Source: Escherichia coli | Lineage (GTDB): Bacteria > Pseudomonadota > Gammaproteobacteria > Enterobacterales > Enterobacteriaceae | Assembly (NCBI RefSeq): GCF_045037415.1 | Contig: NZ_CP173438.1 | Reading direction: 5' to 3' (one strand) | DNA: 64,000 bases | Shown here: piece by piece, positions 24,922 to 27,900 of the stretch | Layout: the number at the start of each line of letters is the position of its first letter | Position numbering within the stretch: position 1 is the first letter of the stretch | Program-made: the position numbers

Positions 24922-27900
24922 AGGTAGTGCGTTTTGTAGGCCTGATAAGACGCAGCAAGCGTCGCATCAGGCAACCCGCACAAGGCTATCCTCTAAACCC
25001 CAACCACTTTACGCAAAATATCGATATACACCGGCATCAACGGGTGGCGAATTAACACCACCAGCGCCACCACGCCGATGGCAGAAATCAACGGCGTCAG
25101 CCACAACAAACGACCGCGGGACAAATAATGACTCAAACGGTCAGTCGCTTTACCGCTGCGCCATAACCGCCAGCACAGCCAGCCACCAACCCACAACAAT
25201 ACCGCCGTCACCAGCAGCAACCATTTAAACTCACCGCTCTGCATCCCGGCAGGAATATCGATCGCCGCACCCGCCAGAATCCCCGGCAGGAAGTAAAACG
25301 GTGGCCATAACAGGCAGCCGATAATATTTGGCGTAATAAATTTCGCCACCGGCAGATCCAGCATCCCTGCCACCATTGGCACCAGCGGACGCGTCGGGCC
25401 GACAAAACGACCGACCAGAATGGTGAACATGCTGTGCTGATGCAGCGCATGTTCGGTTTTATCGAGTAATGCTTTGTTCTTCTTCAGAAATGACCAGCGA
25501 TGCAACGGCTTTTTAAAACGCCAGCCCAGCCAGAAGGAGATCCAGTCGCCCAGCAGGCAACCGACGATCCCTGCCAGCCAGGCGTGCCAGAAACTTAACT
25601 CACCGCTGCCAATCAACGCTCCCAGCCCCGCCATCAGCACCGTACCGGGCAGAATCAAACCGACCAGCGCCAGCGACTCCAGAAAGGCCACCAACACCAC
25701 CGCCATCAATGAATACACGGTGGATTGGGTAATAAAGTGTTCCAGCAATGCTTGCATAATGTGCCCGGTTGATGAATTCGTCGTGGATTGTGCAAAGTGG
25801 TGGTATTCAGGTCAATCTATTCTTTGTATGAATATATTCCTGCAACGCGAATCATTTAGAGTATAAATTTAGCAGTCACGCAGGATTTTACTTAGGGGAA
25901 GGCAGACCATCCACAACTTGGATGGTCTGAAAACAACGGATTAACGGCTAAATGAACGGTAGATATTGCGTCCTTGCAACGCGACAACCAAAAAGAAACA
26001 GACAGCCAGTGCCATAGATACCGGGCGCTCAACAAACGCCAGCCATTCGCCATTAGACTTAATCATTGAAGATAATAAGTTTTTTTCCAACATTGGCCCA
26101 AGAATCATCCCCAGAATAATGGGCGAAACCGGGTATTCCTTACGTTGTAACCAGTATCCAAGAACCCCCATGACCAACATGACAACGACAGAAGCACCCG
26201 AGTTATCGATAGCAAATGCACCGACAATACTGAAAATCAGAATAATCGGGTACAGAATCGCTTTATCAATCCAGATGATGCGTTTGATGAAACTGACCGC
26301 AATTGTGGCTAACGGTAGTAATGCAATATTGGCGATCAGAAACAAGATAAATACGGCATAAAGTTTATCTGCCTGGAACAGAAATAATGTCGGCCCTGGA
26401 TTCATATCCTTCATATAGAGCACGCCGATGATAATTGCAGCGGCAGAATCGCCCGGAATACCGAAAACTAATGAAGGGATCCAACTCCCCGCCAGACTGG
26501 CGTTGTTACTGCTCGAGGAATCAACAATTGCCTCCTCAGATCCATGCCCATATAACTCCTGCTGGCGAGAGAATTTTTTTGAAATGGCGTAACTTATCCA
26601 CGCAGCAATATCCGCTCCAGCGCCGGGTAATGCTCCGATAAGCGTACCGATAATACTACTTCGGCCAAGATTTAATTTTCGTGACCAAATCACCTGCCCC
26701 ATTCCCTTGAATAAATTAATCCCCGTTTGCGTTTGTGGCACAACACCACTTACCTGGCTAATTTTGTCACGATAATATTCAATTGCGCCGGATATCGCGA
26801 ACAGACCAATCATCGCCGGGATAAAGTTCACCCCTTGTAACAGGCTGATTTGACCAAACGTAAAACGTGGAACTCCGGATATTTGATCATAACCGATACA
26901 CGCCAGTAATAATCCCAAACATAAGGTCACCATGCCTTTCAGTGGTTGATTACCCACAACCAGAGTCGCGCAAGTTAAGCCTAAAAGAGAAAGCCATGTG
27001 TATTCATAAGAACTAAAATTAAGGGCAAATTTCGCCAGTACAGGCGCAGCCAACATCAAAATAAGTGATCCAATCACGCCACCAATGACCGAACTCACCA
27101 GCCCAAGTCCCAATACGCGATTCACCTTCCCTTGCTTGACCAGTTCATTTGAATCAGCAACATAAGCCGCCGAAGCAGGTGTCCCTGGTATACGCAAAAG
27201 TGCGCCGGGGATATCTCCGGCATAAATGGATGACGCACCAACGGCAATCATTAATGCCAGGGCGGGAATAGGATCAAGAAAGAAGGTAAAAGGCACCATT
27301 AGTGCAACCGCCATCGTTGCGGTCAATCCAGGGATGGCCCCCACAAATAACCCAAAGGCCGTAGCAGCAATAATGGCCAGAATGGCATTCAAATTAATAT
27401 ACGTTAGTGCCTGAATCAAAATATCCATATTGCATCCTTAAAACAAGATTCCTTCAGGAAAGGCGACCAACAACACTCTGGCAAAAATGAACCAGATAAT
27501 AAGAGATGCCGATATCGAAACGATAACGGAATGCAAAAGTCTGACACCTCGTATTTTCATTAAAATAAAAAGCAACAAAAATGAGCAAATCACAAAGCCG
27601 AGAATATCTAACAGTAATACAAACAGTAGTACCACTGTAATAACCAGTAAAAGTGCTTTCACTTCATCAAAAGTTAAAGAAACTTTGTTACGGTGCCGGT
27701 GTTTAATATCTATCGCTACATCAATAGCCGCTAAAAACAACAACAATCCACTGATGATGCAAGGCATAAATCCAGCGCCATACTGCGATATGCCTCCATA
27801 TTGCGTTATGCTCCAGCCAAAAATAAACATGGCAAAAATCAGCAGAAATAACGGCGTTATCGGTATTATGCGCATAATGCTATCCCTGTAATTTGGCGGC

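Follow-up and report, generated by a model that had tools for sequence, protein, structure and literature searches.

A perfect inverted repeat between tctA and yabI in a stretch of Escherichia coli DNA (64,000 nt of contig NZ_CP173438.1, analysed as a whole and referred to below as the window) is probably the 3′-terminal RNA stem-loop of the pfkB-dhdps-tctC-tctB-tctA transcript, an element derived from a terminator that would protect the message against exonucleases, with Rho-dependent or leaky termination occurring downstream of it. The repeat consists of 11-nt arms that are 100% complementary and enclose a 5-nt loop (Table 1). It had been described from a sequence-only reading as a 10-bp repeat with a 7-nt loop at 25904-25930; the palindrome is indeed present, but that interval is off by one, and the 11-bp stem contains the 10-bp arm. 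Six of the 11 pairs are G-C, and a folding energy of −18.2 kcal/mol (z = −5.5) is calculated for the RNA. The 64 kb contain two perfect hairpins with a stem of 11 bp or more and a loop of 3–10 nt, the second being a canonical terminator at 14728-14755, whereas Markov-1 shuffles yield 0.15 per 64 kb on average and never more than 1; the hairpin is beyond chance expectation. The motif is also unique, as no further copy with up to three mismatches is found in the window.

The minus strand is the sense strand for both tctA and yabI, and the gene order on it confirms the earlier placement of the palindrome between the stop codon of the last cluster gene and yabI. The hairpin starts 11 nt past the tctA stop (TAA, 25943-25941), and the yabI ATG lies 145 nt further downstream, with a promoter-like site for yabI 87 nt from the hairpin end. 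This site is also found in Phytobacter and Klebsiella, and its aligned K-12 counterpart reads TTGACG-17-CAGAAT. The five cluster genes are separated by gaps of only 9-54 nt and are thus taken to form an operon, at the 3′ end of which the hairpin is located. The first gene of the cluster encodes a fusion of a helix-turn-helix domain to a kinase. A literature search on the cluster or the locus returned nothing.

Table 1. Coordinates of the hairpin, the operon that it follows and the neighbouring features in the window.
Feature	Coordinates	Strand	Sequence or remark	Basis
Segment without BLAST-detectable K-12 counterpart	25766..31332	.	contains the hairpin	BLASTN of K-12-type locus L001
RNA stem-loop	25903..25929	-		inverted repeat, folding energy, RNAalifold helix, covariation
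Left arm, plus strand	25903-25913	+	CAGACCATCCA	
Right arm, plus strand	25919-25929	+	TGGATGGTCTG	
Hairpin 5′ arm	25929-25919	-	CAGACCAUCCA	
Hairpin loop	25918-25914	-	AGUUG	
Hairpin 3′ arm	25913-25903	-	UGGAUGGUCUG	
Spacer, tctA stop to hairpin	25930..25940	-	UCCGUUGUUUU, 11 nt	sequence
Tail after the stem	25891..25902	-	CCUUCCCCUAAG, pyrimidine-rich, U-poor; start of a mildly C>G stretch	
Five-gene operon (predicted)	25941..31113	-	hairpin at its 3′ end	ORF gaps, Pfam/NCBIfam, RefSeq annotation of identical locus
DeoR-HTH::PfkB kinase	29881-31113	-		
DHDPS-family lyase	28932-29855	-		
TctC	27924-28877	-		
TctB	27438-27911	-		
TctA	25941-27428	-	last gene of the operon	
yabI promoter-like site	25787..25815	-	TTGACC-17-CACAAT	promoter scan
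yabI (DedA family)	24993..25757	-	next gene downstream, common to K-12	

The sequence that follows the stem does not resemble the tail of an intrinsic terminator. The first eight nucleotides on the minus strand, CCUUCCCC, are all pyrimidines and include two U; at offsets of 0-2 the count reaches 3/8 at best. The tail on the plus strand, AAAACAAC, lacks a U-tract as well, so that none follows the stem on either strand, and a terminator scan of the window does not call the site. The statement of the sequence-only reading that the palindrome has no U-tract and is no canonical intrinsic terminator is therefore upheld. There is no A among the eight nucleotides upstream of the hairpin, the Escherichia stem being preceded by UUUU, and the downstream RNA is mildly enriched in C (15 C vs 9 G in the first 60 nt, 10 vs 10 in the next windows). 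Escherichia coli RNA polymerase requires a U-tract for efficient release at intrinsic terminators. Given the tail CCUUCCCC, efficient termination of the hairpin-plus-U-tract kind is not expected here, and the Escherichia hairpin, as judged from its tail, is without the part needed for efficient factor-independent release.

Tails at the corresponding position in related genera are richer in U. Counted over the first eight nucleotides after the stem, the U content falls from 6/8 in Phytobacter (UUUUCUUC, with AAAA before the stem) to 5/8 in Klebsiella sp. L071 (UCUCUCUU, which the scan calls terminator-like), 4/8 in a Klebsiella MAG (CUCUUUCA, a metagenome-assembled genome), 3/8 in K. spallanzanii (UCCCUCAU) and 2/8 in Escherichia. 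The simple scan does not flag the Phytobacter hairpin because its A and U tracts are absorbed into the stem, and its terminator-like status rests on direct reading and on the U count. On this comparison the Escherichia hairpin is homologous to a terminator-like hairpin whose tail in Phytobacter and Klebsiella sp. is rich in U. The association extends to more distant loci: a strong hairpin is present downstream of tctA wherever that gene comes last (Vibrio, Tolumonas, Cedecea, Klebsiella, Phytobacter), and those of V. xiamenensis, V. salinus and Tolumonas carry a U-run; in six Pasteurellaceae loci, in which dhdps follows within ∼20 nt of tctA, no hairpin is found.

What is conserved in the stem is its pairing. 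In a MAFFT alignment of the tctA-yabI spacer, made on sequence without structural guidance and comprising eight loci (three E. coli-type, one E. fergusonii, three Klebsiella and one Phytobacter), the stem-loop occurs after tctA in the same register in all eight. The basal pairs of the stem do not vary (G-C, C-G, C-G), whereas the inner five pairs are swapped between the two groups, with AUCCA/UGGAU in Escherichia and GCUUC/GAAGC, including wobble variants, in Klebsiella and Phytobacter. Over the 11 pairs, 94.3% of the alignment cells are paired, against 30-44% in controls in which the 3′ partners were slid by 1-3 columns; six of the 11 pairs are altered on both sides, and none of 500 shuffles matches the observed pairing or covariation score, although the eight sequences amount to about two main clades, so that the double changes reflect few events and the cell counts overstate independence. 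RNAalifold predicts the identical helix de novo. The base pairs thus appear to be held by compensatory substitutions in homologous loci, with few evolutionary events behind the counts. Pairing is also better on the tctA-sense strand than on the antisense strand (94.3% vs 88.6%), and seven cells pair as G·U only on the former as compared with two on the latter, which points to an RNA transcribed from the minus strand rather than to a DNA palindrome.

Variation within E. coli is less instructive. Among 580 genomes and 19 metagenomic contigs, variation near the hairpin affects the spacer and the first loop base and never the stem; three sites vary across spacer, stem-loop and tail, two of them in the spacer. 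As the locus is nearly clonal, this invariance carries little information (∼0.8 substitutions would be expected in the 22 stem nucleotides from intergenic variation), and conservation of the stem in E. coli was set aside as evidence of selection. A metagenome scan with the conserved downstream block gave 20 matches, 19 of them E. coli with an identical stem; it added loop and spacer variants and no new genera.

From the position of the hairpin, its covariation and its tail, we infer the following course of events. RNA polymerase would pass through the hairpin or pause there, and transcription would stop downstream through the action of Rho on the untranslated, mildly C-rich RNA or, alternatively, would in part read through towards yabI. 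The 3′-to-5′ exonucleases PNPase and RNase II would then trim the RNA back to the stem, which may thereby set and stabilise the 3′ end of the mRNA. The hairpin may in addition insulate the operon from the yabI promoter-like site. Of the three functions that the sequence-only reading had offered, an RNA stability element is the one that fits best, and its interpretation is in this part supported. The line between a purely protective element and a weak terminator is not a sharp one, as a U-poor hairpin could still pause the polymerase or terminate weakly.

A closely related explanation is that the hairpin still works as a non-canonical intrinsic terminator, its 11 bp releasing a useful fraction of polymerases, perhaps with the help of NusA/NusG and of the pyrimidine-rich tail. 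Its location directly past the last stop codon, the terminator-like geometry given by stem length, loop size and folding energy, and the U-rich tails of the homologous stem-loops in Phytobacter and Klebsiella sp. would all be in keeping with such a role. The scarcity of U after the stem speaks against it, as release by the E. coli enzyme depends on a U-tract, and so does the CC with which the tail begins, which makes for a strong rC:dG hybrid; the upstream A-tract is absent too, and the scan remains silent. We regard active intrinsic termination as a possible but rather unlikely alternative.

It is less probable that the hairpin is the decaying relic of a former terminator, functionless in Escherichia, with a stem that is perfect merely through recent common ancestry. 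The U-tract is already gone, and the near-identity of the E. coli carriers at this locus makes their conservation uninformative, as such a relic would have it. However, the stem is paired across Escherichia, Klebsiella and Phytobacter, with compensation at six pairs, while the flanks diverged or took indels. A divergent Escherichia locus (L046), in which a fimbrial operon replaces most of the cluster, bears on both sides of the argument. It retains a 3′ remnant of tctA together with a 9-bp version of the hairpin in which the top two pairs are broken, as might be expected of decay once the operon is lost; yet nine pairs are kept, one A-U pair having become G·U through an A-to-G change that the fold tolerates, and that erosion is seen in the sole lineage without the operon agrees with an operon-linked function.

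A further reading, to which we give only a small chance, would have the stem-loop selectively kept after erosion of the U-tract, either as a tunable coupling of tct to yabI through read-through or as a 3′-UTR module together with the conserved 26-nt block directly downstream of the hairpin (25866-25891). If it is kept for read-through, YabI, a membrane protein of the DedA family, would be expressed in step with induction of the TTT transporter operon next to it.

Binding of a dimeric regulator to the palindrome as DNA, for instance a yabI regulator or the cluster's own DeoR-HTH::PfkB protein, is very unlikely. A perfect intergenic palindrome upstream of yabI, next to a cluster that encodes an HTH-kinase fusion, would suit an operator, and the sequence-only reading had listed a protein-binding site among its proposals. 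The comparison between genera disfavours it, as the pairing is conserved whereas the sequence is not, the stem having been replaced by compensatory changes, and as the seven G·U cells break the symmetry that a DNA-binding dimer would see. No second copy or half-site family is found in the window, the upstream region of the operon itself included. The palindrome is moreover separated by 87 nt from the yabI −35 hexamer downstream of it, and for autoregulation it would be expected at the other end of the operon.

The comparison with K-12 defines the extent of the surrounding segment. Homology of the K-12-type locus to the window, as detected by BLASTN, is limited to 23200-25765 and 31333-33726, so that the unmatched interval between araC and yabI measures 5567 bp in the window and 106 bp in K-12. 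The palindrome was sought at the araC terminator position of the K-12-type genome and is absent there; the idea, raised by the sequence-only reading, that it might simply be the ancestral araC terminator is ruled out, as K-12 has 106 unrelated bp in that place. The intergenic regions of K-12 and the window align weakly, and solely over the yabI-proximal ∼75 nt that include the promoter-like site. A separate proposal, that the 11 extra AraC codons of K-12 stem from hairpin-adjacent sequence, was rejected because the shared 8-mer CAAGTTGT and the reverse-complement 9-mer GGTAACGAA are no better than those of shuffles.

Among complete E. coli genomes the hairpin is carried by 580 of 5426 (∼11%), in one chromosomal copy each and always with the pfkB-dhdps-tctCBA cluster, beside the gene for the tripartite tricarboxylate transporter permease. 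Klebsiella spallanzanii and Phytobacter massiliensis likewise have all five cluster genes, with araC on one side and yabI-thiQ on the other, and two other Klebsiella sp. assemblies and E. fergusonii have at least tctC-tctB-tctA-yabI-thiQ in the stretch read. Protein identities are similar for cluster and flanks (TctA 89-90%, AraC 87-89%, YabI 82%, ThiQ 76-77%). In every host the GC content of the cluster is 6-8 points lower than that of the flanks and varies with the GC of that host, and neither flanking direct or inverted repeats nor mobility genes (integrase, transposase) are found around it. By gene order, the ‘island’ between araC and yabI is thus a syntenic block common to several genera and no E. 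coli-specific insertion, contrary to what its earlier designation implied. The distribution is that expected if the cluster was acquired long ago and then lost in places, or if it spread by recombination through the flanks; a recent site-specific insertion does not fit it.

That the hairpin is an insertion scar or recombination site (att-like, or a terminal inverted repeat), or else belongs to a dispersed repeat family such as REP, is barely credible, although it lies close to an edge of the segment that K-12 lacks and the cluster is lower in GC than its flanks; the insertion-site remnant of the sequence-only reading is disfavoured with it. K-12 homology fades 75-140 bp away from the hairpin (25765-25830), which puts the hairpin inside the breakpoint, the araC end has no matching repeat, and the cluster holds metabolic and transport genes only. 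The hairpin is single-copy in 580/580 carriers, no other complete E. coli genome has it, and an Rfam match is absent. In Klebsiella, Phytobacter and E. fergusonii, too, the cluster with its in-register hairpin is flanked by araC and yabI. No instance of the palindrome came to light at cluster ends in unrelated genomic contexts or beside a recombinase.

With the scar reading removed, an unannotated palindrome in about one-ninth of complete E. coli genomes gains a label, that of a putative RNA hairpin at the 3′ end of an operon, and the segment around it is recognised as a block that Klebsiella, Phytobacter and E. fergusonii also have. Such a hairpin would be an ordinary feature, of little significance beyond annotation.

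Several known types of element invite comparison. An Rfam search with the hairpin returned no family, the best hit, CRISPR-DR15, scoring 14.6 bits against a gathering score of 36 (E 4.9, i.e. chance). As in REP/BIME elements, an intergenic palindrome stands at the 3′ end of an operon and could block 3′ exonucleases; unlike them, it occupies one place per genome in the 580 genomes and none elsewhere, and it bears no resemblance to the REP-like elements found elsewhere in the window (35740-35766). With the canonical intrinsic terminator it shares a GC-containing hairpin directly past the last gene of the operon, and its in-register homologue in Phytobacter is flanked by AAAA and UUUUCUUC. It departs from that model, in which ∼5 or more of the eight tail nucleotides are U, in its U-poor tail with an initial CC, in having U and not A residues before the stem, and in escaping the consensus scan.

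The closest likeness is to a class of stem-loops with steady-state 3′ ends immediately past them (PMC6061677). These stem-loops equal intrinsic terminators in geometry and energy, have a reduced U content, no upstream A-tract and a mild downstream enrichment of C over G, and guard against PNPase and RNase II (PMC6061677). The tctA hairpin is likewise a stable stem-loop past a gene end, with terminator-like stem and loop sizes, no A in the eight nucleotides upstream and two U in the eight downstream; its C:G ratio of 15:9 is mild and fades after ∼60 nt. The likeness is one of sequence traits. Beyond what the class requires, homologues of the hairpin can be recognised in other genera, with tails that are rich in U. 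Homologous hairpins whose tails range from U-rich to U-poor form a natural series, and may offer a small test case for the passage from intrinsic terminators to Rho-associated protective stem-loops.

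Synteny of the pfkB-dhdps-tctCBA cluster (window 25941–31113) was compared with loci L004, L007, L071, L073 and L076 of Klebsiella, Phytobacter and E. fergusonii. K. spallanzanii and Phytobacter have the pfkB-dhdps-tctCBA order with araC on one side and yabI on the other, and other Klebsiella sp. and E. fergusonii show the tctCBA-yabI-thiQ end of the cluster. In every host the GC content of the cluster lies 6–8 points below that of its flanks, and TctA shares 79–81% identity with Vibrio homologues. The synteny across genera, together with the low GC content and the TctA identity to Vibrio, suggests that the cluster is an old foreign block that has been patchily retained, rather than a recent insertion into E. 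coli. In the divergent Escherichia locus L046, a fimbrial operon encoding two PapD-like chaperones, three fimbrial subunits and one DUF2544 protein stands where most of the cluster would be, and ahead of yabI the cluster is reduced to remnants of the tctA 3′ end plus the hairpin that follows the tctA stop codon.

Features of the cluster, its boundaries and the compared locus L046, and other perfect hairpins of the window
Feature	Position	Strand	Sequence	Remarks
First cluster gene, DeoR-HTH::PfkB fusion	window 29881–31113	minus		410 aa
AT-rich inverted repeat	window 31236–31278		GATAATTAATATT-N17-AAAATTAATTATC	In the 223-bp region upstream of pfkB
26-nt conserved block	window 25866–25891	minus	GUAAAAUCCUGCGUGACUGCUAAAUU	A short way downstream of the hairpin
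araC	window 31337–32182	minus		Cluster boundary at 31333
Chaperone-usher fimbrial operon	L046 2096–6234			Divergent Escherichia, strain SCPM-O-B-8794
Perfect hairpin	window 14728–14755		AAAAACCCGCGC...GCGCGGGTTTTT	A and T runs flanking; more T residues past the stem
Perfect hairpin	window 36575–36601		AAACCAGGCT...AGCCTGGTTT	A and T runs flanking, then a T-run
Perfect hairpin	window 35740–35766		CGCATCAGG...CCTGATGCG	REP-like

At the opposite boundary, K. spallanzanii, Phytobacter and the E. coli that bear the cluster share an AraC of 281 aa with one common C-terminal ending, and K-12 AraC comprises 292 aa with the C-terminus ...RAGCEEKVNDVAVKLS before the stop. The point at which the K-12 and cluster-bearing proteins diverge coincides with the cluster boundary, and thus the 11 additional K-12 codons accompany the absence of the cluster. 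A search for their source at both cluster ends found none, with similarities not exceeding those of shuffled sequences.

The block downstream of the hairpin is more conserved than its surroundings among Escherichia, Klebsiella and Phytobacter, and contains a TGcTAAATT stretch similar to an extended −10 element. RNAalifold predicts base-pairing of part of the block with sequence a little 5′ of the −35 hexamer of yabI, and one of the pairs covaries (G-C to U-A). Among the other perfect hairpins of the window, the REP-like one has similar copies at ∼42734–42852 and ∼62371–62460.

The inverted repeat upstream of pfkB, which is overlapped by a promoter-like CTGACG-18-GATAAT, is a candidate operator for the DeoR-HTH::PfkB protein of the cluster. 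In this protein, a DeoR-type HTH at the N-terminus is fused to a ribokinase-like PfkB domain, and it may unite regulator and kinase in one polypeptide; against the ribokinase model it scores 298.8 bits, slightly below the cutoff of 299.65.
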